Shown one piece after another: positions 179 through 44,286 of a stretch of DNA of 64,000 nucleotides. The notes under the pieces were generated by a model that had not been told where the DNA came from, ran no database searches, and saw only the letters and a list, made by a program, of their open reading frames with translations. How positions within the stretch are numbered: position 1 is the stretch's first letter; each line of letters starts with the position of its first letter. The position numbers were made by a program, and so were the translations under genes. Origin of the DNA: Myxococcota bacterium (GTDB lineage Bacteria > Myxococcota_A > UBA796 > GCA-2862545); contig JBCCQY010000022.1 in NCBI GenBank assembly GCA_039208735.1, forward strand, positions 1 to 64,000. Direction: 5' to 3'.

Positions 179-1198
179 ATGGACCGACAGCAGGAACGCA
201 GAACCGGCGCGGCCCTGGTTCGGGCGTCCAAGACCTACTCGGAAGAGGACATCGGCCTCACTTGGCGCCTGTTCGCAGTTACCGTCGTGGTTTTTGGAAC
301 CGCCGTAGCCACCGCCATGCTCGCCCCATGGTGGCCGGTGCGCCTTTTCGGCTCGGTGATCGCCGGACTAACCGTCGTTCGATTGTTCATCTTCTACCAT
401 GATTATCTTCACGGCGCCATCTTCCGGAATTCCGTCGCGGGGCGTTGGGCCATGGTTGCCGTGGGATGGGGGGTCCTCGCCCCGCCCAAAGTGTGGCGTC
501 AAACCCACGATTACCACCACCAAAACAACGCGAAGATGGTCGGTGCATCGATCGGTTCGTTCCCCACCGTCTCGACGCAGATGTGGCGCCGCATGCGGCC
601 CCGCGAGCGGTTCTGGTACAAGGTCGCGCGCAACCCCCTGACCATCGTGTTCGGCTACTTCACGGTGTTCGTTGGTGGCATGTGTTTTTCGGCGTTCAGC
701 CGGGATCCGAAAGAGCATTGGGAAGGCCCTGCCGCACTCGCCACACACATCGCCCTCATCGTACTTGCCGAGCTGTTTGTCGCTCCCTGGGCCGGGTTCT
801 TCGGCGTCGCGTTGCCGCTGTTCATCGCCTGCGCCATGGGCACGTACCTCTTCTACGCGCAGCACAACTTCCCCGATGCCGAGCTTCGTAGCCGGGATCA
901 GTGGGTGTACCACCACGCTGCGCTCAAGGCCTCGAGCATGTTCGATATGCCTGCGTGGATGCACTGGTTCACCGGGAACATCGGCTACCACCATGTCCAC
1001 CACTTGAACCACCAGATCCCGTTCTATCGGCTGCCTGAGGCGATGGAAGCGATGCCAGAATTGCAGTCGCCCGGACGCACCTCGTGGCATCCGCGTGACG
1101 TGATGGCCGCGTTGAACCTCAAGCTCTGGGATGCCGAAACCAACCAGTTCGTCGGCTGGGAAGGCGCAGACAAGGCCAAGGAAACCGTCGCTGCGTAA
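179..1198 (+). CDS. Membrane fatty acid desaturase (Bacillus Des-like)
   Basis: Three His boxes (HDYLH, HDYHHQN, HHVHH), hydrophobic segments, strong RBS GGAGGAGG before the ATG. Confidence 0.9.
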   Translation: MDRQQERRTGAALVRASKTYSEEDIGLTWRLFAVTVVVFGTAVATAMLAPWWPVRLFGSVIAGLTVVRLFIFYHDYLHGAIFRNSVAGRWAMVAVGWGVLAPPKVWRQTHDYHHQNNAKMVGASIGSFPTVSTQMWRRMRPRERFWYKVARNPLTIVFGYFTVFVGGMCFSAFSRDPKEHWEGPAALATHIALIVLAELFVAPWAGFFGVALPLFIACAMGTYLFYAQHNFPDAELRSRDQWVYHHAALKASSMFDMPAWMHWFTGNIGYHHVHHLNHQIPFYRLPEAMEAMPELQSPGRTSWHPRDVMAALNLKLWDAETNQFVGWEGADKAKETVAA

Positions 1199-1226
1199 TA
1201 TATTACGCACAAACGGTAGGTAACCC

Positions 1227-1258
1227 AAAAGGGACTCACCACCTGGTGAGTCCCTTTT
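1227..1258. terminator. Bidirectional intrinsic terminator
   Basis: Perfect 14-bp stem AAAAGGGACTCACC / GGTGAGTCCCTTTT with 4-nt loop, A and T tracts on each side, between convergent genes. Confidence 0.9.
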
Positions 1259-1337
1259 TCGTCTTGATTGTGTCCTTCTTGAAACTCCGACCCGCCAGTC
1301 GAATCTGACACAAACTCCGACCCGCGGGTCAGATCGT

Positions 1338-2192
1338 TCAGATGCGGCGGAGCTTCATCTGGACGTCGCCCGACCAGTGGTTGTCCATGGCCCGCACGCA
1401 AGTCGACAGGTAGCGGTCGTAGTCGTCGTAGACCTGGTCACCCCAGGTGGCGCGAATGTGGGCCTCATGCTCTTGCATGCGGCGATACCACTCTGCCGTG
1501 GTCTTGCGGTAGCTGGTGCGACGCATGATGAGGCGTTCGAGTTCCCACGACGGGCTGATGGCGAGCACCAGCTCTTCGATGCGGGGATTCAGGCCACCGG
1601 GAAAGATGATGTCGGCGGTGAACTTGAGGTCCTCGAGGTCCTTCTTGTTGCGGGGCACGCGATTGCGAAGAATCGCTTGGAACCCAAAGCATGAGCCCGG
1701 CTCGACCCACTCGGCGAGCTTGTCGAAGTATTGGCGATAGAGATCGACGGCCTTGCCTTCGCGAGCCTGGGCCGGCGAACAAAGGTGGTCGATCATCTCG
1801 ATGGAGACGAGCCCACCGTACTTCATGGGCGGGTTGAACAGCGCATAGTCCTGAAGCCAGAACTTCGCTTTGTCGGCCGGCAGGCCTCGCTCTTCGCAGT
1901 ACTTCAGCTGCTCGGTCGACAACGTGATGCCGTGGGCCTCTTTGACGCCGAAACGCACCATGCAATCGATGGCCGAGCCCCAACCGCACCCGATGTCGAG
2001 CACCGTCTTGGTATCGTCCATCTCGGCGAAGTCATAGAGGATACGCGCCTTCTCTTCTTGGGCACGCTCGAGCGACCAGGACGGGTCGTCCCAGGCTGCA
2101 CTGGTGTAGTGCATGTTCTCGTCGAGCCAAAGCTTGAAGAAGTCGTTCGACACCGAGTAACTGGTGTCAATCTCTTCTTGCGTCGAAGTCAC
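1338..2192 (-). CDS. SAM-dependent lipid methyltransferase, cyclopropane fatty acid/mycolic acid synthase (Cfa/CmaA) family
   Basis: Motifs MHYTSA, VLDIGCGWG, GITLSTEQ, VSIEMIDH, IFPGG. Start set at GTG 2192 (RBS GAGGTG), 8 nt after the PKS stop; the longer ORF call overlaps the PKS. Confidence 0.85.
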   Translation of the reverse strand: MTSTQEEIDTSYSVSNDFFKLWLDENMHYTSAAWDDPSWSLERAQEEKARILYDFAEMDDTKTVLDIGCGWGSAIDCMVRFGVKEAHGITLSTEQLKYCEERGLPADKAKFWLQDYALFNPPMKYGGLVSIEMIDHLCSPAQAREGKAVDLYRQYFDKLAEWVEPGSCFGFQAILRNRVPRNKKDLEDLKFTADIIFPGGLNPRIEELVLAISPSWELERLIMRRTSYRKTTAEWYRRMQEHEAHIRATWGDQVYDDYDRYLSTCVRAMDNHWSGDVQMKLRRI

Positions 2193-2200
2193 GGAGCACC

Positions 2201-5200
2201 TCAGAGATGAGCAGATGAGCCGGACGACGCCGGCGTGGGGTTCGACGGAGCTGCGGGGAACTCCGCGCGGATGTCGGCGAGGTTTTTCGCCACGCGCTCC
2301 GCGGTCCACCGCAGTTGCTCGTGGGAGTGGGTCGACGACAGGAAGAAGCGGAGTCGCGCCGCATCGTCGGCCACCGCCGGGTAGACGATGGGCTGAACGT
2401 TGATGCCTTGCTCTTTGAGCCGTTGCGAAAGGAACAGCGCGTGCATGGAATGCCCAGTGACGGCGGGCACCACACCCGAGCCTCCCAAGGCGGGCCCTGT
2501 GTCCACGCCATGTTCGACGAGGGCATCGTGAAAGACCTTGGCGTTGCTCTGGAGCTTCTCGACCCGCCACCGCTCTTCGCGCATCAGCCGCAAGCTCGCG
2601 AGGGCGGCAACGGCGTTCGCGGGGGTGATGCCCGCGCTGTAGACGAACCCCGGCGCGGTGTAGCGCAGGTACCGGATCATTTCTTTTGAACCGGCAATCC
2701 AGCCCCCACAGCTCGCGAGGCTCTTCGAGAGCGTGCCCATCCACAAGTCCGCGTCGCGAGGCGTCACTTGGCCGGCGAAATGCTCACCTACGCCGCATCC
2801 CGTCGAACCACACACCCCGAACGAGTGGGCTTCGTCGACCATGAGTAGACACCCGTGCTTGCGCTTGAGTTCGACAAACGCGGGGTAGTTCGTGATGTCG
2901 CCGTCCATCGAGTAGACGCCTTCCACGATGATGAGGCACTTCTCGTGGTGCGGCCGCAGCTCGGTGAGCAGCTGGTCGAGGTGCTCAGGATCTTCATGCC
3001 GGAATGCCCGACGCCCCGCGCCCGACAGCTTGATGCCCTGCAACGCGGAGTCATGGATGAGCTCGTCGTGCAGGATGAGGTCGGTCGGCTTCATGAGGTG
3101 GCCAATGACGTTCACGTTCGTCATGTGGCCAGCCGTGAACACGAGGGCATCGTCGAGCCCCTGGGCTTCGGCGAGTTCGCGCTCGAGTTCTTGGTGGAAG
3201 GGCCGTTCCCCCGATGCCACACGAGAGGCAGATACCGAGGTCCCGTACTTGCGCACCGCCTCGTTGACCTCCTCGATGACGCGTTCGTCACCGGACAACC
3301 CGAGGTAGTTGTACGAGCTGAAGTTGACCAGCTCTCGTCCCTCGACGAGCGTGGTGTCGCGAGCGGTGCCCTGATGCACGTGGAAGTAGGGATTTTCGAG
3401 CCCTACCGCGGATGCCATCTCGAGGCGCTGCTCGAGGTCTCGAATCTCGGCCCACTTCGAAGGATCGACCCATTCGTCCTTGACGACAAAGTCGGGCACG
3501 GGTGCCGCGGGCGCCTCTTCGGCGTTGGGGTCGCGCTGCATCTCGGCGACCGTGCCTTCGATGACGGTGACGAGGCTGCCCAGGTCATCCCGCAGCCAGA
3601 ACGAGGCCACGAATCGGTCGCCCTCGGCCTCATCGAAGCGCGCTTCGACGGTCAGGGGGCCGGGAGCCGCCGGTGCGACCTGGACCAGTCGGCGCACCGC
3701 GACGGGCGTTCCGGCGCGCCCGTACCGGTCCCACACCACCAATGCCCCTAGCTGGAACGCCGAGTCCACAGCCAGTGGATCAACGGCCCACGCCGGGCGG
3801 TCCGTGCCAGGAATCCAATCCTTAGGCGAACGACTTTGCACCACACCACGGGCGAAGTTGTCCGAGACGCCGTCGACCTGCGTAATGCCCTGCAACAAGG
3901 GCCCGTGGAAGGTCACGTCCCCGTAGAAGGTGGCCAAATCGGTGGCCGGCGGTGCGCCCCCCGAGAGTCGGGAGGGGTTTTCTGGATAGGCCGCCGGACG
4001 CACGCGGGCCTGGTAAGCAAGGCGTCGCTGGGGTCCGATGCGAAGCTCGGCTTTTTCGCCGTCGATGCTCGCCGTGACGGTGACCGGCTCGGCCACTGTG
4101 ATGCCGTTGAACAGCTCCACGTCGACCACTTCGAAGGGCGCAGGAACGCCCGCGATCTGCGCCAGGAGGTCCGTGGCCGAGGCCAGCGGAAGAATCGGCA
4201 CCCCTTCAATGGCATGGTCGAGCAAGTAGGGATGGGTCTCGGTCGAGAGGTGATGCTCGACCGTGCGCCGCCGCATCCAGTAGGGCAAAGCACGGCCCTT
4301 GGTGAGCGCGCCGCGACCGTGGTGCAGGTCGGCGAGCAGGGCGTTCATGCCGGCTTCGTCCCCGACAAAGTCGATGCCTTCGGCGCGCATCGTCGCCTGG
4401 ATGGCGGCGGGAATCGTCGATGCCATCTCGGAGGTGGCCCAAGGCCCGTACTCCCCGGTCACAATTCGCAAGGCGGTGCCCGGCCAGTGCTGGGACAGGC
4501 CCGCCAACGTCGCGTTCGCCGCTGCGTAATGGGCCTGATGCCGGTTTCCAAAGCGACCCGCCCATGACCCGAGGGCCATGGCGACGGTGACTTCCGTGCC
4601 TGCCGCCGCCAGGGCATTGAGCAGGCCCGCCACCTTGATGCGCCGAGCCATGGCGCCGTGTTCGGCTTCCACAGTCCCCAACGCTCCATCGGCCAACACA
4701 CCGGCCGAATGGACCACCGCGGTGAACGGACGGTGCGGAGCCACGGCCGCGACCAGGGCTTGGCGATCGGTGACGTCCGCCGCGACGGCGGTGATGCGCT
4801 CCCCAAGCGACGCTTCGGGGGCCTTTCGCCCCACCACGACGACCTCGGCGCCTTCCGCCGCCAAGCGTTCGGCGAGGGCTCGACCGATGCCCCGCGTACC
4901 CCCCGTGATGAGGACCCGGTCTGCAGCACCTGGAGTCCAGCCTTCGGTCGGTGCTTCGACCGGCTCGAATCCGATGACGAATCGACCCTGGGGACCGAAG
5001 TGGACGTCGGGGCTGTGGTCATCGTGTTGGAGGGTCCGCACGAGCGATGCAGCCCGTTCGGCGGCCCCCAAACCGGCAAACCACAACGTCTGGGACGGAC
5101 GGCCTGACCATTCTTGATTCGCGGTTCGGGCCACGCCTGCCAAGCCGCTTGCCCACGGATCGTCGGTCCGCGCGAGCACGATCACCCCGGGCTGTTGGCC

Positions 5201-8200
5201 CTTCTTCGCGTGGGCATCGAGCAACGCGATGAGCGGTCCCGCCGGGTCCGGCAGGACCGCTTCTCCGGCCGCCACCGCAGCGGGCGACACCGGATCCTCG
5301 AAGTCTGCGACCCAGACTACGACGTCGACGGGTTCGGTGGGATCGTCCACCACCGTGGCGCTCGCAATGCGCAACGCCGCGGCGTAGGGCTCGCTCGGGC
5401 CGACCACGGCCACCCGAAGCCCGTCGAGCGACCGCATGGGTCCTTCGAGGGCCGCCGGACGCCAATGCAGCGCATACGACGTCAGCGGCGCGTCGTCATC
5501 GACGTCGTCGGCATCGCGGTTCCGATGAATGTGTTCCGCGAGGGCCTGAACCGTGGGTCGGTTCATCAACAGCTCTCGGGGCAAACCACCGAGACCAGGG
5601 AACACCCTCGACAACCCGGTCGCGAGGTCGGACACCATCAACGAGTCGAACCCAAGGTCGTCGAACAACGACAGGTCGGCTCGCACCGCTGCACGCGGGT
5701 AGGAGCTGACCTCTGCCACGACATCCGCGACCTTCTCGAAGACATCGTCGAGGGTGAGTTCGCCGTCGGCCGGTGTTTCCACAGCAACATGGCCTGCGCC
5801 GTTCGTCGTCACCCCATTCGTGACGCCATTGGTCGTGAGATCGGGCTCGTCCGTAACTGCGGATCGATGGGCTGCATTGAGGTTCAGGCGTCGCTGGGCC
5901 ACGTCGCTGATGGGCCAGTACGGCTCACGCGGCCATTCCTGTGCGGGCAAGCTGCGCACCTGGACGTCACGGGTCAACGACGTCGTGTCGAGGTCCACCC
6001 CTTCGACCCACAGTCGGCCAAGGGCTTCGAGCACGGCGCGCCCACCGTCGTCATCCTCGCGGCCTGACAGCGACAAGACCGCCTGTGCATCACGACCGAC
6101 CACCTTGCGGGCGAACGAGGCCAACGGACCTCCGGCTCCGACCTGGAGGTAGATCGTCGATCCCGCATCGGCGAGCTGGTGCAAGGCGCGCTGGAAGTGA
6201 ACGGGGCTTCGCTGGTGCCGGGCAAACACCGCATGGGCATCCGCCGCCGAGGCGTACGGCGACGCGGCAATCCCCGAAGCGACGACAACGTCGGGGCTCG
6301 GGTCTTGAAGCGAGACCTGCGCCACCAACGCTTCCCCATCGACCTGTTCGAAGATCGGCGAGTGGAAGGCGTGACTGACGGTCAGGGGCTTCGCATCGAC
6401 GCCCGCGGCCGTCGCACGTTCGACGACCTGGGCGACCGCCTCGGTGTAGCCCGAGACCACGACCTGCTTGGGATGGTTGTCGTTGGCGACGACCGCTCCC
6501 TCAACAAGGAACTCAACCGCCCGCTCGCCCGAGCAGCGCAACGCCGCCATGCTTCCAGGGTCGCCCTCAACCGCATTCATGGCTTGGCCACGGTAAGCGG
6601 CGAACCGCACGGCATCGCGCTTCGACAACACCCCGCCCACCGCCGCGGCCGCGAACTCACCGAGCGAGTGCCCAGCTGCGGCCACAGGCTTCACCCCGAC
6701 CTCTTCGAGGATGCGATGCAGGGCAAGGCCCGCCGCCACCAGTGCGGGCTGGCAGTTCTCGGTCTGCGTCAGTTCAGCCTCGGCCGCCTCGGCATCGATC
6801 GGCTCGGACCGCTTCTCGGGGTAGAGCAGGTGGGTCAGCGGACGCGCAACGATGTCCGACAGGTCTTCTTCGAACCCCTGAAGCGCTTCGTCGACCACGG
6901 GAAAGCGCTCGATGACCGAACGCAGCATGCCGACGCGTTGCGCTCCTTGACCGGCAAACAACAGCGCGACCTTTGGAGCCTTGCGCGGCACCTCACCGAT
7001 GTTCGCCCCCTTCGGGAACTCGCCCCTCGACACTTCGTCGAGCAGTCCCAAAAGCTCATCGCGCGTGCCTGCGACCAAAGCACAACGGTGCTCCACGGCC
7101 TGCCGCACGTTCCAGGTGCGCGCCACTTCGGCCACGGTCAGGTCCGGGTGGGCCCGCAATTCCTCGGCGAGTCGCTCCGCGGTTCGCCGCAATCCGTCTT
7201 CAGTGCCCGCGGAGAAACGCACAATTTCGAGCTGCTCGGGAGCCGAAACGCCATTGACGGCATCGGCGGAAGCACCCACTGTCGGAACGCTCGCAGAAAC
7301 ACCGGTTCGCCGGGCTTCGTACCCACGCAACACCAGGTGTCCGTTGGTGCCGCCAAATCCAAACGACGACAGCGCGGCCAATCGGGGCCCCTCCCACGGA
7401 CGGGCCGCCGTAGGGATGACAAAGTCGCCGCGTTCGAGTTCGATGGCCTCTTTCGGGTTCTCGAAGCCCGCCATTGGGGGAATCACGCCGTGATGAACCG
7501 CCAGCACGGTCCGCGCGAGTCCTGCCGCCGCCGCAGCCGACATCGTATGGCCCACGTTGGCCTTCGAAGACCCCAGCGCGACGTTGTGGATTGCGCCATT
7601 GAACGCATCGCGCATCGCCCCGATTTCCGAGACGTCGCCGACCGAGGTGCCTGTGCCGTGGGTTTCGATGTAGCGAAGCTCGGCCGGATCGGCGCCCGCG
7701 TCCTTCCAGGCGTCCATCATGACGGCGGCCTGGCCCGCCCGAACGGGAGCCATGGGACCGTCCCCATGCCCGTCATTGTTGAGCGCCACGCCTTCGATCA
7801 CCGCATAAATGCGGTCTCCGTCACGCTCCGCGTCTTCGAGGCGCTTGAGCAAAAAGCTTCCCGCCCCATCACCCTGGACAAACCCATCCGCCCGCGTGTC
7901 GAAGGGCAAGCAACGCCCTTGCTCGCTCATCGCCCCAATCCGGGCGAATGCGATGTAGTGTTCGGGGGTCATCTGCAGGTAGGAGCCCCCGGCGAGGGCT
8001 GCGTCGATGGTCCCCGTCCGAAGCTGCATGACGGCGTCGTGCACCGCGACCAATGCCGATGCACAGGCGGCGTCAACCGTGTATGCAGGACCCTGAAGGT
8101 CGAGTTCTTGAGCCACTGCTGCGGAGGGCATGTTGGCTAGCACGCCGGGCGCCGTGAAGGGTCGCACCTGAACGATGCGTTCCACGGCATCCGCGAGCGC

Positions 8201-8656
8201 TTCAGCGTCCTCCGGGGCTCGTCCAAACTGCCCCGTGGCCATCATCGTGGCCATGACCCGGGTTCCCATCATCATCCGGAATTCGTTCGCCGTGATGCCG
8301 ACGAACACCCCGGTGCGGCGGGGAAGCTGCGACGGCAGGTAGCCGCCGTCCGCGATGGCCTGAAGGGCGACCTCGATGGACAGCCGCTGTTGCGGATCCA
8401 TCACCTCGACCCGGCGCGGCGGAATGCCGAGCATCAGGGCGGGGAACGAGCGGATGTCGTCCATGAACGCACCCGCTTTCGCGTAGGTCTTGTCGGCGGC
8501 CCGGCGGTTCGCGTCGTAAAACGCGGCCTCCGGCCATCGGTCGGCGGGCACGGGCCCAAAGGCATCCCGGCCGTCGGTGGTCAGCTTCCAGTAGTCGTGG
8601 AGATCGGACGCACCGGCGTACCGGCAGCCCATCCCGACGATGGCAATGGCGCTCAC
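2201..8656 (-). CDS. Type I PKS/FAS-like enzyme KS-AT-ACP-KR-DH fused to a C-terminal PLP alpha-oxoamine synthase (SPT/BioF family)
   Basis: KS: DAACAS, HGTGT, KANVGH. AT: GHSLGE, HAFH (malonyl type). ACP: LGFDSL. KR: GGTRGIG, HSAGVLAD, YAAAN. DH: HAIEGVPILP, DSAFQ. AOS: SYNYLGL, EGVYSMDGD, DEAHS, GTLSKS. Confidence 0.93.
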   Translation of the reverse strand: MSAIAIVGMGCRYAGASDLHDYWKLTTDGRDAFGPVPADRWPEAAFYDANRRAADKTYAKAGAFMDDIRSFPALMLGIPPRRVEVMDPQQRLSIEVALQAIADGGYLPSQLPRRTGVFVGITANEFRMMMGTRVMATMMATGQFGRAPEDAEALADAVERIVQVRPFTAPGVLANMPSAAVAQELDLQGPAYTVDAACASALVAVHDAVMQLRTGTIDAALAGGSYLQMTPEHYIAFARIGAMSEQGRCLPFDTRADGFVQGDGAGSFLLKRLEDAERDGDRIYAVIEGVALNNDGHGDGPMAPVRAGQAAVMMDAWKDAGADPAELRYIETHGTGTSVGDVSEIGAMRDAFNGAIHNVALGSSKANVGHTMSAAAAAGLARTVLAVHHGVIPPMAGFENPKEAIELERGDFVIPTAARPWEGPRLAALSSFGFGGTNGHLVLRGYEARRTGVSASVPTVGASADAVNGVSAPEQLEIVRFSAGTEDGLRRTAERLAEELRAHPDLTVAEVARTWNVRQAVEHRCALVAGTRDELLGLLDEVSRGEFPKGANIGEVPRKAPKVALLFAGQGAQRVGMLRSVIERFPVVDEALQGFEEDLSDIVARPLTHLLYPEKRSEPIDAEAAEAELTQTENCQPALVAAGLALHRILEEVGVKPVAAAGHSLGEFAAAAVGGVLSKRDAVRFAAYRGQAMNAVEGDPGSMAALRCSGERAVEFLVEGAVVANDNHPKQVVVSGYTEAVAQVVERATAAGVDAKPLTVSHAFHSPIFEQVDGEALVAQVSLQDPSPDVVVASGIAASPYASAADAHAVFARHQRSPVHFQRALHQLADAGSTIYLQVGAGGPLASFARKVVGRDAQAVLSLSGREDDDGGRAVLEALGRLWVEGVDLDTTSLTRDVQVRSLPAQEWPREPYWPISDVAQRRLNLNAAHRSAVTDEPDLTTNGVTNGVTTNGAGHVAVETPADGELTLDDVFEKVADVVAEVSSYPRAAVRADLSLFDDLGFDSLMVSDLATGLSRVFPGLGGLPRELLMNRPTVQALAEHIHRNRDADDVDDDAPLTSYALHWRPAALEGPMRSLDGLRVAVVGPSEPYAAALRIASATVVDDPTEPVDVVVWVADFEDPVSPAAVAAGEAVLPDPAGPLIALLDAHAKKGQQPGVIVLARTDDPWASGLAGVARTANQEWSGRPSQTLWFAGLGAAERAASLVRTLQHDDHSPDVHFGPQGRFVIGFEPVEAPTEGWTPGAADRVLITGGTRGIGRALAERLAAEGAEVVVVGRKAPEASLGERITAVAADVTDRQALVAAVAPHRPFTAVVHSAGVLADGALGTVEAEHGAMARRIKVAGLLNALAAAGTEVTVAMALGSWAGRFGNRHQAHYAAANATLAGLSQHWPGTALRIVTGEYGPWATSEMASTIPAAIQATMRAEGIDFVGDEAGMNALLADLHHGRGALTKGRALPYWMRRRTVEHHLSTETHPYLLDHAIEGVPILPLASATDLLAQIAGVPAPFEVVDVELFNGITVAEPVTVTASIDGEKAELRIGPQRRLAYQARVRPAAYPENPSRLSGGAPPATDLATFYGDVTFHGPLLQGITQVDGVSDNFARGVVQSRSPKDWIPGTDRPAWAVDPLAVDSAFQLGALVVWDRYGRAGTPVAVRRLVQVAPAAPGPLTVEARFDEAEGDRFVASFWLRDDLGSLVTVIEGTVAEMQRDPNAEEAPAAPVPDFVVKDEWVDPSKWAEIRDLEQRLEMASAVGLENPYFHVHQGTARDTTLVEGRELVNFSSYNYLGLSGDERVIEEVNEAVRKYGTSVSASRVASGERPFHQELERELAEAQGLDDALVFTAGHMTNVNVIGHLMKPTDLILHDELIHDSALQGIKLSGAGRRAFRHEDPEHLDQLLTELRPHHEKCLIIVEGVYSMDGDITNYPAFVELKRKHGCLLMVDEAHSFGVCGSTGCGVGEHFAGQVTPRDADLWMGTLSKSLASCGGWIAGSKEMIRYLRYTAPGFVYSAGITPANAVAALASLRLMREERWRVEKLQSNAKVFHDALVEHGVDTGPALGGSGVVPAVTGHSMHALFLSQRLKEQGINVQPIVYPAVADDAARLRFFLSSTHSHEQLRWTAERVAKNLADIRAEFPAAPSNPTPASSGSSAHL

Positions 8657-8740
8657 AGAGACCTCAAGTGCGGAGAACCGCTCGGGAACTCGACGCTCGG
8701 GAACGGCGCCGAGCCCATCAGGCTCGATGGTGGATGTGGA

Positions 8741-8989
8741 TCAGACCTTGCCAGTCTTGATGAGACCAGCCAGGTCCCCGATCTTCTGGACCTTGTGCAG
8801 CTCGTTGTCGGGGAACGTCTTGTCGATCTTCTCTTCAATGAAGTTCACCATCTCCATGATGGCGATGGAATCGAGGCCGAGGGCTGCGATCTCTTGATCG
8901 ACTGTGATGTCGGCGAACTCGTCCTTGCGCTTGGGATCGACCTGGCCGAGCGCTTCCTTGATGAGCGCGATGACGTCTTCGTCAGACAT
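8741..8989 (-). CDS. Stand-alone acyl carrier protein
   Basis: 82 aa, acidic, LGLDSI phosphopantetheine motif, GGAG RBS before ATG 8989. Confidence 0.9.
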   Translation of the reverse strand: MSDEDVIALIKEALGQVDPKRKDEFADITVDQEIAALGLDSIAIMEMVNFIEEKIDKTFPDNELHKVQKIGDLAGLIKTGKV

Positions 8990-9056
8990 GAAGGACTCCG
9001 ATGGGCAATGGTGAAGGAGCGAGCCTCGCACAGGAAAGGTCCGAGGTAGGTCGCAC

Positions 9057-10802
9057 CTACGCAGAAGGCTGCTTGTCAGCGCCGGACGAGCCAGCGACGT
9101 GGGCGCCAGTGGCACGGGTGTCGGTGCCAAGATCTCCCCGCAGGTACATGTCGCGGGCCTTGCGGCGCTGGAGCTTACCTGAAGAGGTCTTCGGGAGGGT
9201 GCCCGGGGGCAGGCAGCGCACTTCGCTCACGCGCAGCGACAGTTCACGCTGCACAATGCTGCGGACCTGCGGGACGAGGGCCTGCGGATCGGCGGCCCGC
9301 GTTTCGAGCGTGACGATGAGTTCCTCGCCGGTGGTTCCGGGGACCGAAAACGCGATCACGTTGCCCTTGCGCACGCCTTCGATCTCAGCGACGGCCCACT
9401 CGACCGCCTGCGGATGCACGTTGCGCCCGTTGACGATGATGAGGTCCTTGATGCGCCCCGTCACGTACGTCTGGCCGTCCAGCATGAAGCCAAGGTCGCC
9501 CGTGCGAATCCAACCGTCGCGAAACGCCTTGGCCGTCGCCTCAGGGTTGCCGAAGTAGCCCTTCGTGACCGAAGGGCCGCGGAAGCACAGCTCACCTTCG
9601 GTGCCGTCGGGGAGGGGGCGCATGTCGTCGTCGAGCACGGCAATCTCATGCTCGGGGAAGGTGACGCCACAGGAGACGTGCTCCACCGCCTCACCCTCGG
9701 CCGCGGTGGCCCCATCGATCTGCTCGACCTCACCCGCCTCCGCGAGCTTGGACGCCGAGATGGTGAGGGTGCGTAGCGGCTCATCCACCGGCTTGAAGGT
9801 CATCGCCAATGTGGCTTCGGCCATGCCGTACGCGGGCAGGATCGCCGTGTTGGAGAGGCCCGCAGGCGCGAAGGTCTCGTGGAATTCGCGCATCGTCTTG
9901 GGCTGGATGGGCTCGGCACCGCACCCCAACACCTTCACCCGGGACAGGTCCCACCGTGCGATGTCGGAGGCCTTGGCGCGACGCGCCGCGAGGGCGTAGG
10001 CGAAGTTCGGCGCGAACGAGACCGTCGCCTGATGACGGTGCATGGTCTCCAGCCAGACGTTCGGCTGCTTGATGAAGCGCATGGTCGGAATGAAGACGAC
10101 CGGAATGCCATGGTAGACCGGCGAAATCACGAAGCCGATGAGGCCCATGTCGTGGTAGAGCGGCAACCAAGACACGCCCTTGTCGCCAGCTTCGGGCGCA
10201 ATCTTCGCGCCGTGCACCATGATGGCATGGGCGTTCGCAATCAACGACCCGTGGGTGACCATCACGCCCTTCGGATCCGACGTCGAACCCGAGGTGTACT
10301 GGAGGAAGGCCAAGTCATCGGGGGTGATCGTGGGGTAGTCCGGAGCGTCGCCTGGCTCGGAGAGTTCGGCCGCGTTGATGACGTGCTCAAGCGGCTCCAC
10401 AAACGCCTTCAAGCCCTGCAGAAGGTCGAAGAGCAGCGGCGACGTGACCAGCACGTGGGCCCCCGCATTCGTGAGGATGCGCGCCGTCCGCTCGACGTAG
10501 GCCTTGAGGTTGCCGAACGACATCGGCGGGTAGAGCGGAACCGGGACGACGCCCACGCGGAGTGCGGCGAGGAAGGACAGGACGAAATCCTCGGGTTCGA
10601 TCACGATGAGACCGACGCGATCGCCCTTCTTCAGACCAAGACGTTGCAAGGCGGCCGCACGCTTTGCGGTCTCGCCCTCCATTTGCGGGAACGTGTACGC
10701 CGTTTCGGCTCCCTTGGCGTCCTGGAACGTGAAGCCGAGATCCGGGTAGAGGTTTCCGACTTCCGCCACGGCCTGGGCGATCGTCTCGAAGCGTGGGGAC
10801 AT
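9057..10802 (-). CDS. Fatty acyl-AMP ligase (FAAL)
   Basis: LQYTSGSTSDPKG, SWLPLYHDMGLIG, YGMAEATL, RTGDLG, LPKTSSGKLQR; insertion after the YG-AE motif; adjacent ACP. Confidence 0.9.
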   Translation of the reverse strand: MSPRFETIAQAVAEVGNLYPDLGFTFQDAKGAETAYTFPQMEGETAKRAAALQRLGLKKGDRVGLIVIEPEDFVLSFLAALRVGVVPVPLYPPMSFGNLKAYVERTARILTNAGAHVLVTSPLLFDLLQGLKAFVEPLEHVINAAELSEPGDAPDYPTITPDDLAFLQYTSGSTSDPKGVMVTHGSLIANAHAIMVHGAKIAPEAGDKGVSWLPLYHDMGLIGFVISPVYHGIPVVFIPTMRFIKQPNVWLETMHRHQATVSFAPNFAYALAARRAKASDIARWDLSRVKVLGCGAEPIQPKTMREFHETFAPAGLSNTAILPAYGMAEATLAMTFKPVDEPLRTLTISASKLAEAGEVEQIDGATAAEGEAVEHVSCGVTFPEHEIAVLDDDMRPLPDGTEGELCFRGPSVTKGYFGNPEATAKAFRDGWIRTGDLGFMLDGQTYVTGRIKDLIIVNGRNVHPQAVEWAVAEIEGVRKGNVIAFSVPGTTGEELIVTLETRAADPQALVPQVRSIVQRELSLRVSEVRCLPPGTLPKTSSGKLQRRKARDMYLRGDLGTDTRATGAHVAGSSGADKQPSA

Positions 10803-10939
10803 GGTTGGACTCCTTCGCAGGCGGCCTGGACCACCGGGACATGACGCTTACGGTCCCGTGCAACGCTCTGCAAACAATTGGCTTCTCCGAGGGGTCGTAT
10901 CCGGACAATGACGGACGCCAGACGCCGATAATCAACCGT

Positions 10940-10995
10940 AAACCGACGAGTCAGTCAAAACGACTCTCGGCCTTCAACCGACCGAGCGGTCGGAA
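10940..10995. promoter_or_regulatory. Two tandem candidate operator sites upstream of the FAAL-ACP-PKS-MT unit
   Basis: AAACCGACGAGTCAGTCAAAA (10940-10960) and CAACCGACCGAGCGGTCGGAA (10975-10995, containing the perfect inverted repeat CCGACCG-AG-CGGTCGG). The first overlaps a minus-strand TTGACT. Confidence 0.5.
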
Positions 10996-11124
10996 CTGTA
11001 GGGAATTGAGGAAAACCACAGAAAAAGCATTCCCATTCGAGAGCCGAAGCTCACGATGAGGTAGCGCATTCATTACGAACCCGACGGAAATGTGCCAGAC
11101 CGGCCACACACCGGTGACGAAGGG

Positions 11125-11979
11125 TCAGCTCGCCTCGTCCGCCGCGACCTTCTTGAGGGCGGTCCGCCACTCCTGATCGGCGAGGTACCGAGAAAGACCA
11201 GGGAAGTGCTTGTACATGAACCAAATGAACCAAACGTCGGAACCCGGGAAGTTCTCGAACCGGCCTCGCTCGATCGCGCGAAGCATGGACTTGGCGACAT
11301 CGTCGGGCGCATGGGTCTTGCTGAAGGCCGAGTCGGCCTCCATTTTCCAAACCGCCTTAGGCTTGGTCTCGTTTTCGTTCTGCAGCCCTGGAGTATCGGT
11401 GGTGCCCGGGTAGAACAGCGTCACCTTGATACCCTGGGTCCCCACCTCCATGCGGAGGCTTTCGGCAAAACCAGCGATCGCAAATTTGGATGCCGAGTAT
11501 GCGCTGTAGCCAGGCATCGACATGAAGCCGAGAGCCGAACTGACCAAGCAAATGTCCGCCCGTCCACCGTCTTCGCGACGCAGTTCTGGCACAAATGCAC
11601 GCACGACGTTGACGTGGCCAGTGTAGTTCACGGCCATCATCGCATCGAAATCGTCGTCGGAAAGGTCGGTGAGGTAGCCCGGGCGCGCCGATCCGACGTT
11701 CGTGATGAGCACGTCAACCCCACCCCCGAGCTGCTGTTTCACGGGCTCGACCGCATCTCGAACCGCGGCGCGATCCGTGACATCGAGCGAGCAAAACCCT
11801 AGTGCCTGGCCATCCTTGGCCACGGCACGCATCGCGGCGACCGTCTCCTCGAGCGGAGGCACCCGACGCGCCGCGACGACCACATGGGCCCCCTGTCGGG
11901 CCAACGCCACCGCCGCGGAGCGACCGATCCCTTCGCTTCCGCCGACCAAGAAGACACGTTTGCCCGAAAAGTAGCTCAT
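11125..11979 (-). CDS. SDR oxidoreductase, 3-ketodihydrosphingosine reductase (KDSR/Tsc10)-like
   Basis: GGSEGIG, YSASK, and the segment YPGTTDTPGLQNENETKP resembling the KDSR signature. Confidence 0.85.
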   Translation of the reverse strand: MSYFSGKRVFLVGGSEGIGRSAAVALARQGAHVVVAARRVPPLEETVAAMRAVAKDGQALGFCSLDVTDRAAVRDAVEPVKQQLGGGVDVLITNVGSARPGYLTDLSDDDFDAMMAVNYTGHVNVVRAFVPELRREDGGRADICLVSSALGFMSMPGYSAYSASKFAIAGFAESLRMEVGTQGIKVTLFYPGTTDTPGLQNENETKPKAVWKMEADSAFSKTHAPDDVAKSMLRAIERGRFENFPGSDVWFIWFMYKHFPGLSRYLADQEWRTALKKVAADEAS

Positions 11980-12623
11980 TTGGCGTCGACCTCTTCCCGC
12001 ACCTCATAGGTGCCGAAGACATGGTCCCAAATGGTGGTGGAGACCCCGAATTTGAGGTCTTTGTACTTGGGATTGTGGTGGTGCTTGTTGTGATGGGCCC
12101 GCAACGCACGACCAATCCAGGTGAGCGGCTTGTGATGGTGGATGTAGTAGTGCGTGAGGTCGTACACCATGTAGCCAAAGGCGATGCCCGCAAACACGCC
12201 CATGGGCCAGGTCGGCGCCACCATAGGCTCCAAGGCGTAGGCCACGCCAAAGAGAATGATATTGACGACCAGCGCCACGGCCAAGCTCGCGGCAGGCGGC
12301 ATCACGAGGCGCAGCTTGTCTTTGAACCACTTGTGATGGACGCCGTGCAGGTAGAAGTGAAAATCTTCGCCCCATGACGTGTTCGGCTTCCAGTGGAACA
12401 ATGTACGGTGGAGCCAGTACTCGAGGAGCGTCCAGATCACGTACCCGAGCACAAACTGTCCGAAGAGTACGCCGGCCGACACCCCCACCTGAGTACCCCA
12501 GGTAAGGTAGGCGAGGACCATCGGAACGTAGATCAGCGGCACCACCCAGAACGGGATGCGCGAGAAGAAGTCTAGGACGTCGTTTTCGAACATCCGCGGG
12601 GATTCGGGCGTCGCTCGAAACAC
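11976..12623 (-). CDS. Fatty acid/sphingolipid 2-hydroxylase (FA2H/Scs7-like, no cytochrome b5 domain)
   Basis: EYWLHRTLFH, HGVHH, DKLRLVMPP, YDLTHYYIHH, HNKHHH, FGVSTTIWD. GTG 12623 with RBS GGAGGG; 4-nt overlap with the SDR. Confidence 0.87.
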   Translation of the reverse strand: MFRATPESPRMFENDVLDFFSRIPFWVVPLIYVPMVLAYLTWGTQVGVSAGVLFGQFVLGYVIWTLLEYWLHRTLFHWKPNTSWGEDFHFYLHGVHHKWFKDKLRLVMPPAASLAVALVVNIILFGVAYALEPMVAPTWPMGVFAGIAFGYMVYDLTHYYIHHHKPLTWIGRALRAHHNKHHHNPKYKDLKFGVSTTIWDHVFGTYEVREEVDAK

Positions 12624-12678
12624 GGAAACCCTCCTGCGGCGGCACGAGCCAGTCCGCCATTCGGAGCCTGGCGTACCA

Positions 12679-12729
12679 TGACAAAAGCCTGTTGTCAGGC
12701 GGCTCGTATTTCGACCGGACCGTCGGTTT
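12679..12729. promoter_or_regulatory. Candidate operator sites upstream of the hydroxylase-SDR unit
   Basis: TGACAA-N7-TTGTCA palindrome (12679-12697). Minus-strand AAACCGACGGTCCGGTCGAAA (12709-12729) is 16/21 identical to the 10940 site. Confidence 0.45.
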
Positions 12730-12810
12730 AACCGAAACCCTCCCAATGCGGTCTCGGTAGGACCGTCGCGGTTCGTTGCAGGATCCTGTTCGTTCGAGGC
12801 GGCCCGGTTT

Positions 12811-13602
12811 TCAGGTGGCGCGCGGCGTCAGCACGGCTCGGGCCATCACCGCATTGGGGTCCGCGCTGCGCGCCAGGACGAATGCCACACAGTCGTTGCT
12901 CACCGGCCACTGCCACATCGTGAGTTCGTCGTGGGCTACCGCCTGCCCGCGGTAGTCAATGGTCGCCTCTCGGGCGGGCGCGCCAAGCGCATCCTCAAAC
13001 AACCGCAGGTAGTTCGCGTTGTTCACGTGGTCGTGCACATCGCAGTCGCTGGGTCGCACCCGAACGAGCGAGGTGACGGCATCGCCCGGAACATCTCGAA
13101 ACACGGTGTCGTCAAGCGTAGGTTCGAAACGCTGTTCGGGAGGTGAGAGGAACGATCCCGGCCGCCCGGCGTCGGCCGGAACGTCGGTGCGCGAAGGCAA
13201 CGGCGCGTCGGTCGTGGCCTCACGAACGTGGTTGGGGACCCGCGCCATGCGGCCCGACGGAGCGATCCAAATCGCATTGATGAACGCTCGGGCGAGGAGA
13301 ACTCCGTCTTCGCGAAGGAGATCCTGCTCGACGATGCAATTCACCCGGCCCACCTCGCGCAGGATGGCGCGGACGACAAGCTTGGTTCCGATGCCAAACG
13401 TCCGCACCACCCCCAGCGTGGCTCGGTGGACGACGAAGAAGTGCCCTTCGTGCAAGGGTTCCACGAGTCCAAAGCGTGGCTCGAGGATCCATTCCCATCG
13501 ACAATGCTCACACAGGGAGAGGATCTGCGGCAGGCCGACAACCGCACCCTGGGTGCACTCGTAGCCGCGAATGGTCACGGGGACCGAGAATACATCGTCC
13601 AT
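12811..13602 (-). CDS. Double hot-dog acyl-ACP/acyl-CoA thioesterase
   Basis: C-terminal domain VRPSDCDVHDHVNNANY (acyl-ACP thioesterase catalytic-type motif); N-terminal hot-dog-like domain (IRGYEC...EHCRWEW). Confidence 0.72.
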   Translation of the reverse strand: MDDVFSVPVTIRGYECTQGAVVGLPQILSLCEHCRWEWILEPRFGLVEPLHEGHFFVVHRATLGVVRTFGIGTKLVVRAILREVGRVNCIVEQDLLREDGVLLARAFINAIWIAPSGRMARVPNHVREATTDAPLPSRTDVPADAGRPGSFLSPPEQRFEPTLDDTVFRDVPGDAVTSLVRVRPSDCDVHDHVNNANYLRLFEDALGAPAREATIDYRGQAVAHDELTMWQWPVSNDCVAFVLARSADPNAVMARAVLTPRAT

Positions 13603-18437: not shown

Positions 18438-20567
18438 GTGCGAATCGGAGTGATGACGAGCGGTGGAGATGCCCAGGGCATGAACGCTGCGGTCCGCGGA
18501 GTGGTGCGACGCGCACTCGCCGCGGGCCTTGAAGTAGTCGCAGTCTACGAGGGCTATGCGGGTCTCGTGGCAGGCCGGATGGGCCCTTGCACCTCAACCA
18601 CCGTCTCCCGCATCCTCCATCTGGGAGGAACCCACTTTGGCACGGCGCGGTGCCCCGAGTTTCGGACGACGGAAGGACGACGAACGGCCGTCGCCAACCT
18701 CGTGGACGCCGGGATTCATCACCTCGCCATCATCGGCGGCGATGGTTCGCTCACCGGAGCCATGGTGCTTCGGACCGAATGGACGGATCATCTGCAGGCG
18801 CTCGTCGCGGAGGGCCGCCTTACTGCGGAACAGGCCGAGGGCCATCCCTCGCTCGCCATCGTGGGAATGGTCGGCTCGATCGACAACGATCTATGGGGCA
18901 CGGACCGTACGATCGGTTGTGACAGTGCCTTGCATCGCATCGTGCACGCGATCGACACGCTGACCGCCACCGCTCGGAGCCACCAACGCTCCTTCGTCGT
19001 CGAGGTCATGGGTCGACACTGCGGCTTCCTCGCGCTCGCCGCGGCCGTGTGCACCGGCGCAGACCACCTGCTCATTCCCGAGGCTCCGAGCGACGACTGG
19101 AAGCGTGATGTCGTGGCTGCAGTGCGCCGGGGACGAGCCCAAGGCAAGCGCAAGGCCATCGTCATCGTGGCCGAGGGAGCCTGTGACAAGGACGGAGTCG
19201 ACATCGAAGCCGCCGATGTGCGCAAGGTGCTCGAAGCGGAACTCGACGCCGAGACTCGAGTGACCGTGCTCGGCCACGTGCAGCGCGGCGGCGCCCCCTC
19301 CGCCTACGACCGCATCACGTCGTCGATGCTCGGGGCCCGCGGGGCGGAAACGCTGATCGGCATGACCGGAGCGGACGAACCGATGGTCATGACCACCCAA
19401 GGCCTCGCCATCGAACCTCGGCCGCTCGCGGAGTGCCTCCGGCAAACCCAGGCGCTGGCGGCCGCGCTCAAGGAACGGAACTACACCGCAGCCGTCGAAG
19501 CCCGAGGCCCCGAGTTTGGCGAGCTGCTCTCCTTGCACCATCGCCTCACCAAGGCCCCCGACGAAGCTCCACAGGGGCCTCGCATCCTCCTCACCCATGT
19601 GGGGGCTCCGGCCCCGGGGATGAACCCCGCCATCCGAGCCTTCGTCCGTCTCGCGCGCGGCCGAGGCGCGGTGCCCCTGCTCGTGCAAGACGGGCTACGC
19701 GGGCTGGCGACCAACCAGATCCACGAGGCGACTTGGAACGAGGTGAGCGGCATCGCGTCGTTGGGCGCCACGGTGCTGGGCACGCGTCGGGCTCCCGCCG
19801 ATTCTGCGGTGCTTGCCGCCCTCGACGAACACGCGATCCACGGTGCGGTGATCGTGGGCGGGTTTGAGGCCTTGCCCACGGCTGCCGCCATCGCCGCCAC
19901 CGGACGTCCGGTCGCGGTCGTGCCCGCCACCATCTCCAACAACGTGCCGGGGACCGATTCGAGCGTCGGTTGTGACACCGCGCTCAACGTCATCGTCGAC
20001 GCCGTCGACCGGCTCAAGCAATCCGCGGTGGGCTCCCGGGACCGCGTGTTCGTGGTCGAAGTCATGGGCCGTCGCTGCGGCTACCTCGCGGTGGCGGGCG
20101 GGCTGGGGGCCGGCGCTGAGATCGTCTACCAGCATAAACCTGGAATCACCCTGTCCGGCCTCAAGGAGGACGTCACCAAGCTCGCGGAAGCCTACGACCG
20201 CGGGCGGCAGGTGGGCATCGTGCTCATGGCGGACGGCGCCTCCGAGGCGTTCAGCGCGAATACCCTCGCGCGGGTGTTTCAATCGGAATCTGGCGGACGG
20301 TTCGACACGCGCGTCTGCGTGCTGGGTCACCTCCAACAGGGGGACCGGCCATCCCCTGCCGACCGGTTGCTCGCGACCCGCCTGGTCGATCGGGCCGTTC
20401 ACCACGCAGCCGACGGCGAAGGTGCGGTTGTGGTCGGCGTCGAAAGAGGCCTCGTGATCCAGGCTTCGGTGGCCAGCCGCATCGAAGAAGCAGACCTTTC
20501 GCATCGGCGTCGCAAGACCCCCGTGCACAGCGATTGGGATGAGGTCGCAACCCTTCTTCGAGGCTAA
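18438..20567 (+). CDS. pfkA: 6-phosphofructokinase, tandem two-domain (eukaryote-type)
   Basis: N-half: TSGGDAQGMN, GGDGSLTGA, GSIDND, EVMGRHCG, LGHVQRGG. C-half: VGAPAPGMN, PATISNNVPG, EVMGRRCG, LGHLQQG. Confidence 0.92.
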   Translation: MRIGVMTSGGDAQGMNAAVRGVVRRALAAGLEVVAVYEGYAGLVAGRMGPCTSTTVSRILHLGGTHFGTARCPEFRTTEGRRTAVANLVDAGIHHLAIIGGDGSLTGAMVLRTEWTDHLQALVAEGRLTAEQAEGHPSLAIVGMVGSIDNDLWGTDRTIGCDSALHRIVHAIDTLTATARSHQRSFVVEVMGRHCGFLALAAAVCTGADHLLIPEAPSDDWKRDVVAAVRRGRAQGKRKAIVIVAEGACDKDGVDIEAADVRKVLEAELDAETRVTVLGHVQRGGAPSAYDRITSSMLGARGAETLIGMTGADEPMVMTTQGLAIEPRPLAECLRQTQALAAALKERNYTAAVEARGPEFGELLSLHHRLTKAPDEAPQGPRILLTHVGAPAPGMNPAIRAFVRLARGRGAVPLLVQDGLRGLATNQIHEATWNEVSGIASLGATVLGTRRAPADSAVLAALDEHAIHGAVIVGGFEALPTAAAIAATGRPVAVVPATISNNVPGTDSSVGCDTALNVIVDAVDRLKQSAVGSRDRVFVVEVMGRRCGYLAVAGGLGAGAEIVYQHKPGITLSGLKEDVTKLAEAYDRGRQVGIVLMADGASEAFSANTLARVFQSESGGRFDTRVCVLGHLQQGDRPSPADRLLATRLVDRAVHHAADGEGAVVVGVERGLVIQASVASRIEEADLSHRRRKTPVHSDWDEVATLLRG

Positions 20568-29854: not shown

Positions 29855-29857
29855 CCC

Positions 29858-30466
29858 TCAGTGCGTGCGCAGCTCGACTTCGCCCGCCCCCACGCACACC
29901 TCGATCGTGTAGGGCGCGTTCGGATCGTCCACGATGGCGTTGTCGATCACGCCTACCAGGGCACCCACTTCGAGGCGGTAGGGCCCCGGCGGAACGTCGA
30001 TGGCCACCCGTCCCGCTCCCGCGCACGCAAACACGTTCGTCGGCGCATCGAGGTAAACGTCGATGCTGCCACGGTCCACCAAAAGGCCGAGGTCGGTATC
30101 GTCGGGCGTCTCAATCTCGAGGGTGCCGCCGCCGGCCAGCCCGTTCGCATCGATCACCACCGTTCCATCGACGAGTTCAGCCACGTCGGGGCTCGCGTTG
30201 TTGCCCAGACCCCCGCCTTCCCATCGGGCAAACAAGCGATCGCTCCGGCTCGTCGAAACGCGGATATCGCCATTGCCGACGCTGGCTTCCAACGTTTCCG
30301 GTGCGTCGAACGTCCACTGGGACTCGCCACCGCCCACCTCAACGATGCAGCCAACGGCCATCGCGGCCACGATTGTCGCCCCGAAAAGGCGCCCCATTGC
30401 TCCGGTCATCCCTTCCTCCGAGTCTGTGTCGAGGATTGGGACACCGACCATCCAACCAAAGGTCAC
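29858..30466 (-). CDS. Hypothetical lipoprotein (DUF4097/adhesin-like beta repeats)
   Basis: Lipobox AVGC; repeated G-x-I/V-x-V/I motifs. True start may be a downstream Met. Confidence 0.55.
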   Translation of the reverse strand: MTFGWMVGVPILDTDSEEGMTGAMGRLFGATIVAAMAVGCIVEVGGGESQWTFDAPETLEASVGNGDIRVSTSRSDRLFARWEGGGLGNNASPDVAELVDGTVVIDANGLAGGGTLEIETPDDTDLGLLVDRGSIDVYLDAPTNVFACAGAGRVAIDVPPGPYRLEVGALVGVIDNAIVDDPNAPYTIEVCVGAGEVELRTH

Positions 30467-30478
30467 CCGAGCCGATAA

Positions 30479-35244: not shown

Positions 35245-35271
35245 GGGAAGGTCGATTGGTCGATCCACGTC

Positions 35272-35285
35272 GCGTCACGTGACGC
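35272..35285. promoter_or_regulatory. Perfect palindrome between the divergent citrate synthase-like genes
   Basis: GCGTCACGTGACGC, next to GTCGAT direct repeats at 35251 and 35259. Confidence 0.4.
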
Positions 35286-35309
35286 CTTCAGCAGAACACG
35301 GGAGGAGCC

Positions 35310-36365: not shown

Positions 36366-36375
36366 CGACGACCGG

Positions 36376-43097: not shown

Positions 43098-43099
43098 CC

Positions 43100-44257: not shown

Positions 44258-44286
44258 GACGCCGGTTCTTGTCAGGAGCCTCTCGC

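Follow-up and report, generated by a model that had tools for sequence, protein, structure and literature searches.

A fused polyketide synthase–oxoamine synthase locus of uncultured Myxococcota as a probable source of serine-derived long-chain bases

What does a bacterial gene cluster make when a polyketide synthase (PKS) runs, in one open frame, into an α-oxoamine synthase (AOS) that depends on pyridoxal phosphate (PLP)? The cluster considered here occupies positions 179–13602 of a 64,000-nt stretch of DNA from a Myxococcota bacterium (the window, by which we mean the whole stretch analysed). Judging from sequence comparisons, the locus probably makes a serine-derived long-chain base and stands in for the serine palmitoyltransferase Spt. 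A more specific version, in which a 4E double bond is kept so that the product would be 3-keto-sphing-4E-enine and then sphingosine, is evenly balanced in our judgement.

The original prediction for this DNA named eight genes and proposed that they form an assembly-line route to a sphingoid base. All eight open reading frames are present and intact, with the families it gave, as judged from Pfam, NCBIfam-type models and PDB searches, which supply the models and E values used throughout. Seven genes run on the minus strand in the order thioesterase (TE), hydroxylase, short-chain reductase (SDR), fatty acyl-AMP ligase (FAAL), acyl carrier protein (ACP), PKS and Cfa, separated by 217, −4, 322, 67, 84 and 8 bases; the desaturase (Des) lies on the plus strand, convergent with this series. 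A scan of the locus for promoters and terminators gave a signal at chance level. Along the PKS chain follow a ketosynthase (KS, residues 2–398), acyltransferase (AT, 566–839), ACP (974–1043), ketoreductase (KR, 1248–1407), dehydratase (DH, 1464–1702) and AOS (1775–2121). The features are as follows.

179–1198, plus strand: membrane fatty-acid desaturase, probably a tailoring enzyme (PF00487, E 4e-27; nearest model DesA, 161 bits against a cut-off of 500)
1338–2192, minus strand: short methyltransferase of the Cfa/CMAS family, dependent on S-adenosylmethionine (PF02353, E 7e-53), starting 8 bases past the PKS stop
2201–8656, minus strand: fused PKS–oxoamine synthase, 2151 residues in one frame, Pfam domains KS-AT-ACP-KR-DH-AOS
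2252–3454, minus strand: PLP-dependent AOS domain, predicted serine acyltransferase and chain-release domain (best PDB match Spt, E 5e-67)
3527–4279, minus strand: PKS-type DH domain, dyad His and Asp kept (alignment, model and fold search)
4337–4924, minus strand: KR domain with a LAD-type motif (PF08659)
8741–8989, minus strand: stand-alone ACP (PF00550), proposed to hold the starter acyl chain in an AcpR-like role
9057–10802, minus strand: FAAL, proposed to have an AasR-like role (best model PRK09192, 517 bits against a cut-off of 600)
11125–11979, minus strand: KDSR-like SDR (orthologue profile against the PDB)
11976–12593, minus strand: Scs7/FA2H-like fatty acid hydroxylase (PF04116), overlapping the SDR start by 4 bases
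12811–13602, minus strand: double-hotdog TE (PF13279, PF03061), of doubtful membership in the system

Which substrate the AOS domain serves is suggested by its relatives. Its closest annotated relatives are an SgaB-like protein (about 50% identity) and RkpG (45–47%); with Escherichia coli B Spt it shares 32–34%. The SgaB-like reference is the AOS of a Pseudomonas plasmid locus (L107) with a gene order like sgaAB...sgaC, which stands in for strain MYb115 in all our sequence comparisons with SgaABC; the RkpG reference is a Sinorhizobium protein of RkpG type. In a FastTree phylogeny of 91 rows, the fusion AOS, the SgaB-like protein, RkpG and cyanobacterial, planctomycete and Streptomyces proteins form one clade (support 100); E. 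coli B Spt, CFB-like Spt, Kbl and BioF fall outside it. PfSgaB is a demonstrated serine-selective serine palmitoyltransferase (PMC12134224). This genome has only two other AOS proteins, a Kbl (TIGR01822, 669 bits, over the cut-off) and a BioF-like protein, whose gene precedes a BioD–BioA fusion at 42959–46179 of the window (plus strand) and served as an internal control for the AOS classification.

Does the distribution of the fusion suit a substitute for Spt? Among 40 relatives (24 of the same family, two of family f7 and 14 of families f2–f6), the fused AOS turned up in 22 of the 24, in both f7 genomes and in none of the 14; the two same-family genomes without it are 83% and 77% complete. 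In an evenly drawn sample of the phylum (401 genomes, at least 85% complete; AOS threshold E ≤ 1e-95), 67 genomes match, with one copy each. One of them, G230, carries a different system, with a PKS that bears an enoyl reductase (ER) and a separate AOS and SDR, which leaves 66 of 401 genomes, in 15 families, as fusion carriers; the fusion is present in 21 of 21 genomes of the own family (this genome, G000, not counted) and in 11 of 12 of f7. Single copies throughout whole families are what one would expect of a core lipid gene. The frame spans at least 2,000 codons in 53 of the 66 carriers; the other 13 are shorter, and all four of these that were inspected end at contig edges.

A stand-alone gene of CFB type, called Spt-like after its nearest model (CFB Spt model, E ≤ 1e-108, four candidates scored per genome), occurs in 94 genomes of 21 families, that is, in 94 of the 335 non-carriers and in none of the 66 carriers. 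Its only overlap with the 67 AOS matches is G230, against 15.7 genomes expected, and in families f5 and f54 both states occur, in different genomes. We also classified 69 non-fused AOS matches from the 40 relatives (all but one, from G001): six are nearest the CFB Spt model at more than 400 bits, all in genomes without the fusion, and those of family f1 are Kbl or BioF-like, bar three not classed in G014 and one in G024. Record titles and protein names among the relatives point to uncultured Myxococcota or Deltaproteobacteria, while several titles name Enterobacteriaceae or Alphaproteobacteria and look mislabelled. Three records (L001, L002 and L009) are titled Enterobacteriaceae or Klebsiella yet hold a high-GC locus of myxobacterial type, and these labels look wrong.

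What chain would this AOS receive? Kept in 30 of 30 aligned orthologues are the KS Cys/His/His, the AT Ser with malonyl-type HAFH/HGFH, the ACP Ser, the KR cofactor site with its LxD/LAD-type motif and catalytic Ser/Tyr/Asn, the DH His and Asp, and the PLP Lys, His, Asp and Arg of the AOS. A LAD-type motif marks a B-type KR, the type that precedes trans double bonds. The DH His, Asp and Gln are invariant across 46 of 46 sequences, and the model made from these sequences is a confident PKS-type double-hotdog dehydratase (pLDDT 94), with AlnB first among its top Foldseek matches, followed by GphF and Cur DH. The Pfam scan found no ER domain in the PKS, and an SgaA-type ER query matched none of 30 PKS proteins and none of 61 loci (those of the 67 with both KS and AOS, after removal of nine duplicates and G230; up to about 20 kb each, some cut by contig ends); nor does an ER recur among the neighbour genes of the core loci. 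We read this lack of an ER, overlooked in the original prediction, as the most telling feature of the locus. The KS is at most 43% identical to those of annotated plasmid PKSs, and the PDB likewise gave no close characterised relative.

The front end recurs with the core. When E. coli B AasR is searched against this genome, the FAAL comes first (36% identity). The FAAL adjoins the core in 58 of the 61 loci, and the ACP does so in 51; E. coli B AcpR has no significant match in this genome. In four of five genomes lacking an ACP at the locus, one is found elsewhere. In G017, an ACP lies away from the core (L191:5734–7119) beside another desaturase, with an Scs7-like gene about 8 kb off. A phosphopantetheinyl transferase gene flanks 8 of the 67 loci; in this genome it lies away from the locus. 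Upstream of the FAAL, three loci carry a type III PKS (L005:3–497, L007:1338–2933 and L012:3–824), so the FAAL–ACP pair may also prime alkylresorcinol-type synthesis.

That the eight genes are co-conserved as a unit holds in part. FAAL, ACP, SDR, Cfa and Des recur beside the core, but not as a fixed block, and the TE stands apart. Beside the core in the other loci (n = 61) we counted the SDR 11 times, Cfa 11, Des 8, the hydroxylase twice and the TE once, with no ER and no bCerS-like gene; the linked tailoring cases span families f1, f33, f41, f43, f50, f54, f56 and f59. The distant locus L145 reads FA2H-Des-SDR-FAAL-Cfa-ACP-PKS, seven of the eight genes, and in several distant families Cfa often lies inside the operon, between FAAL and ACP, with Des and SDR flanking. 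For seven genes, the TE not among them, the grouping exceeds chance. Within the own family (n = 24) the SDR is present in 21 genomes, Cfa in 19, the hydroxylase in 23, Des in 18 and the TE in 9, mostly unlinked to the core. The TE orthologue adjoins the core only in a same-genus relative; we rejected it as a member of the system on co-occurrence (1 of 61 loci; present in 9 of the 24 genomes of the family). At 7 of the 67 loci another, short hotdog thioesterase lies next to the FAAL.

A profile of 11 SDR orthologues placed TSC10 (8jat) second among single-domain PDB matches, 3 bits behind clavaldehyde dehydrogenase; the SDR and TSC10 have an ENxxKP stretch in common, and the SDR is 30–32% identical to SgaC-like and RkpH proteins. 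An SDR orthologue also occurs in three of three f3 genomes, all with a stand-alone Spt-like gene. In the ESM Atlas, SDR and Cfa returned generic family names, with one cluster named '3-dehydrosphinganine reductase' at rank 14. For the hydroxylase, yeast Scs7 is the sole PDB match (E 3e-28), and FA2H-like hydroxylases of myxobacteria have been tied to sphingolipids (PMC10002949). The Cfa-like protein folds like mycolic-acid methyltransferases (TM score 0.80–0.88, top ten matches) and falls below the cut-off of every Cfa model. The bicarbonate site of Cfa is formed by Glu, His and Tyr; in 11 of 11 aligned sequences His266 of E. coli Cfa is replaced by Gln, Glu is replaced by Asp in the window protein and one relative and kept in nine, and Tyr is invariant. 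The Gln is a hint of chemistry other than plain cyclopropanation. Of the 67 genomes with an AOS match, 50 have a Cfa orthologue, against 27 of the 334 others and 3 of the 94 Spt-like genomes.

From the domains, the intact active sites, the AOS clade, the distribution and the co-clustering, all of them observed here, we infer which substrates are used, how often the chain is extended, what is made and in what order, as follows. The FAAL would adenylate a fatty acid and load it onto the small ACP, as AasR and AcpR suggest; the KS would take the chain and extend it once with malonyl on the internal ACP; and KR and DH would convert it to a trans-2-enoyl-ACP, which would stay unsaturated because there is no ER. 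The AOS would condense this enoyl chain with L-serine, with loss of CO2, and release it; as acyl C2=C3 becomes sphingoid C4=C5, the product would be 3-keto-sphing-4E-enine, and a C14 starter would give a C18 base. The KDSR-like SDR would then reduce the ketone to yield sphingosine, with no oxygen-dependent Δ4-desaturase required. Des would add a mid-chain double bond, the Cfa-like enzyme a methyl branch or ring, and the Scs7-like enzyme would 2-hydroxylate the N-acyl chain, which an unlinked YghO/bCerS-like protein could attach where present. The assembly-line route of the original prediction is supported by the placement of the AOS in the SgaB/RkpG clade, the mutual exclusion with Spt, and the likeness of the SDR to TSC10 and of the hydroxylase to Scs7.

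The rest of the genome was searched for partners. The eukaryotic order of steps favoured by the original prediction is conjectural; this genome also encodes a YghO/bCerS-like acyltransferase on contig C46, unlinked to the locus (32% identity, E 5e-57), and such a gene occurs in 19 of 24 family genomes. In E. coli B, YghO corresponds to the N-acyltransferase of Caulobacter (PMC9386255). CerR has no clear orthologue in this genome (best E 1e-12, to generic epimerases), and a search for Lag1-type ceramide synthase gave none in five genomes, with no control matched either. No DES1-like Δ4-desaturase was found in this genome; such desaturases (PF08557) occur in 17 of the 401 genomes, two of them carriers, and were dropped as a possible complement to the PKS as too rare to inform. 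A glycosyltransferase family 21 match lies on contig C58 of this genome (22643–23164, L188; E 3e-38), from a model that also matches 12 of 14 control genomes. This family includes ceramide glucosyltransferases and HpnI.

Several observations weigh against a serine-derived base made in place of Spt, or against its 4E bond. The exclusion statistic is inflated by kinship, as the carriers are not independent; the Spt-like class is a nearest-model label, with 0 of 401 genomes passing the model cut-off and Bacillus subtilis a false positive; and Rhodobacteria-type Spt falls below the scan threshold (E. coli B Spt: 1e-101). Extra AOS genes outside the named classes occur in G014 and in G036 (one, family f7). 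On three Spt models the fusion AOS scores 267, 193 and 292 bits against cut-offs of 500, 670 and 640, and the last of these, on the CFB model, lies below its bioF score of 339, a pattern also seen in the SgaB-like and RkpG proteins. Its Ser-Arg pair is found in BioF-like proteins too, so the motifs do not single out serine, and it reads HDS where SgaB and RkpG read HNS and Spt reads HAS. The SDR is absent from the locus of the closest relative (G001, L014; best match elsewhere E 9e-52), and its profile gave no match in G019 and G021, which are 94% and 99% complete. Five distant, tailoring-rich carriers have no convincing bCerS-like gene (one weak match to the C46 query, none to the E. coli query). 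No cultured carrier turned up: among the best 120 matches per search, the names attached to fused KR-DH-AOS proteins are unclassified or metagenome-assembled. Lastly, this genome encodes a PfaD-type trans ER, and a match to it occurs in 23 of the 24 genomes of the family, so the enoyl chain could be reduced in trans.

This last point bears on an alternative that we consider unlikely on balance: the same pathway with the PKS as an SgaA-like elongase, in which PfaD or a housekeeping trans ER saturates each round to give saturated, possibly very long sphinganines. PfaA-type synthases, whose ER is separate, have the same KS-AT-ACP-KR-DH order, and the PKS scores 494 bits on TIGR02813 (PfaA-type; cut-off 1010); among the 41 genomes of the taxonomic order, 37 have a PfaD above its cut-off. 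SgaAB, moreover, yields C24–C28 sphinganines (PMC12134224). PfaD, however, lies on another contig of this genome (C13), next to a different PKS gene. At none of the loci examined does it adjoin the core, non-carriers have it as often as carriers do, and the search did not find it in 4 of 10 near-complete carriers from other families. Less likely still is an AOS that uses another amino acid, such as glycine, alanine or cysteate, so that the aminoketone or amino alcohol lipid made is no sphingoid base but perhaps a signal or surface anchor. It would suit the many substrates served by this fold in the PDB list, motifs that leave the amino acid unspecified, the position of SgaB/RkpG-type genes among capsule genes and the lack of bCerS-like genes in several carriers; it sits poorly with the absence of a stand-alone Spt-like gene from all 66 carriers, with the KDSR-like and Scs7-like partners, with the serine selectivity of the nearest tested relative (PMC12134224) and with loci at which no capsule genes recur.

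We find it very improbable that the PKS iterates without an ER to a conjugated diene or polyene before amino-acid release, making a polyene aminolipid or pigment. Enediyne-type synthases of the same KS-AT-ACP-KR-DH order do iterate without an ER, AlnB is the top fold match of the DH, and hotdog thioesterases flank some loci, but none of the annotated plasmid PKSs has a KS close to this one, the thioesterase is inconstant, and one copy per genome throughout whole families would be less expected of a pigment or toxin than of a membrane lipid. Separate from the core product is the question of whether the system is FAAL, ACP and PKS only, with Des, Cfa, FA2H and TE merely nearby and acting on ordinary phospholipids. 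The loose linkage of tailoring genes in the own family, the single TE-linked locus and the Cfa orthologues in genomes without the PKS speak for this; we hold it improbable given the operon position of Cfa between FAAL and ACP in several distant families, the flanking Des and SDR, and the frequency of Cfa in carriers relative to Spt-like genomes.

How does a locus predicted to make a serine-derived base compare with known systems? PfSgaABC of Pseudomonas fluorescens MYb115 (Peters et al. 2025) joins a PKS, an oxoamine synthase and a KDSR-like reductase to make sphinganines (PMC12134224), and on this point the original prediction, which knew of no characterised cluster of this composition, was wrong or overstated. 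As in SgaABC and RkpA-RkpG-RkpH, a type I PKS is predicted here to supply the acyl chain, a same-clade AOS to condense it and a KDSR-like SDR to reduce the ketone. SgaA-like proteins and RkpA, however, read KS-AT-DH-ER-KR-ACP, a full reductive loop, with a separate AOS, whereas the window protein is an ER-less KS-AT-ACP-KR-DH-AOS in one chain, with a KS 31–32% identical to theirs. The window further differs in its dedicated FAAL and ACP for the starter, its Des, Cfa and FA2H partners and its lack of capsule genes. A KDSR-like SDR in the cluster is common to both, though linked in only 11 of 61 other loci. The genus table of the Sga report (Fig. 3B) names no myxobacterial genus and has three entries for 'unclassified Deltaproteobacteria' (PMC12134224).

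The Caulobacter/E. coli B route, AasR-AcpR-Spt-CerR-bCerS (PMC9386255, PMC11324152, PMC11087976), likewise feeds an AOS through a FAAL-type ligase and dedicated ACP; the FAAL–ACP front end is therefore not new (PMC9386255). The window differs in a PKS module inserted between loading and condensation, an AOS of another clade, and a KDSR-like SDR in place of a clear CerR orthologue. The fungal glucosylceramide pathway (Sld8, the C9-methyltransferase Smt1 and α-hydroxylation; PMC3887071) does the same chemical jobs, namely mid-chain desaturation, Cfa-related methylation, formation of a 2-hydroxy acyl chain and KDSR reduction, with Des and Sld8, and Cfa and Smt1, matched by job only; Smt1 is absent from the PDB match lists of the Cfa-like protein. 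PfaA-type and enediyne-type iterative PKSs have the domain order and the PKS-type DH fold in common with the window protein, which differs in its single ACP (Pfam), its C-terminal AOS and the lack of adjoining pfaBCD; no aminotransferase-bearing type appears in the accessible text of Shulse and Allen 2011 (PMC3098273). The literature covered, with subscription journals and MIBiG outside it, holds no description of FAAL-ACP plus a fused ER-less PKS-AOS. The locus would function as an SgaABC system fitted with an AasR-AcpR front end, while on the tested features it belongs to neither. Its core logic has been published (PfSgaABC, PMC12134224; AasR-AcpR-Spt, PMC9386255); the fused ER-less PKS-AOS is where it differs. 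What it adds is its spread across the phylum, its mutual exclusion with Spt and a precise chemical prediction.

Related architectures turned up in other lineages. Pirellulales carry single-chain FAAL-ACP-AOS fusions of about 1,150 residues without a PKS (P0244, P0265, P0292 and others), with an AOS of the same clade; these are candidate one-protein serine palmitoyltransferases and suggest a load-and-condense module that may have gained a PKS module in Myxococcota. A Streptomyces plasmid encodes a KS-AT-ACP-AOS fusion without reductive domains beside an MMPL transporter (L109:8320–13158), its AOS being sister to the Myxococcota fusion AOS in the FastTree phylogeny. A Planktothrix plasmid (L110:5566–13164) encodes KS-AT-DH-ER-KR-ACP-AOS together with a FAAL and GT39 glycosyltransferases, by its sequence a separate, ER-bearing cyanobacterial PKS-AOS fusion. 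In family f4, ACP-FAAL-AOS without a PKS is followed by a sulfotransferase (L041:5848–13272 and L042:3217–8416, the former also with a CerR-like epimerase), a candidate locus for a sulfated sphingolipid or aminolipid. In the fusion carrier G014, a further cluster (L043:7151–16000) combines a KS and an SDR with a pair of divergent AOS genes.

Elsewhere in the window, positions 18438–20567 (plus strand) encode a 709-residue phosphofructokinase with two such stretches in one chain, a layout better known from eukaryotes. Positions 28136–40749 hold a glycoside hydrolase of family GH9, a CHAT-TPR protein, an nSTAND1-WD40 protein and a divergent pair of citrate-synthase-like genes, one with a helix-turn-helix domain.

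A bolder picture, possible but tentative, is that about one-sixth of the genomes in the phylum sample have swapped serine palmitoyltransferase for an ER-less PKS-AOS that writes the 4E bond by dehydration, without oxygen or DES1. With Des, the His-to-Gln Cfa and the Scs7-like enzyme, this would give a look-alike of the fungal methyl-branched, 2-hydroxy-acyl sphingadienine ceramides, which would be a core membrane lipid and a biomarker of uncultured Myxococcota. Because databases label the fused protein 8-amino-7-oxononanoate synthase or aminotransferase, surveys of bacterial sphingolipid producers based on spt would overlook these genomes. If the 4E prediction is true, the locus would represent a way to sphingosine chemistry that differs from the SgaAB route as well as from the eukaryotic DES1 step, and would allow sphingosine-type bases to be made with a single polypeptide; in sediments and mats, sphingoid bases with double bonds or methyl branches should then no longer be taken as a purely eukaryotic signal.

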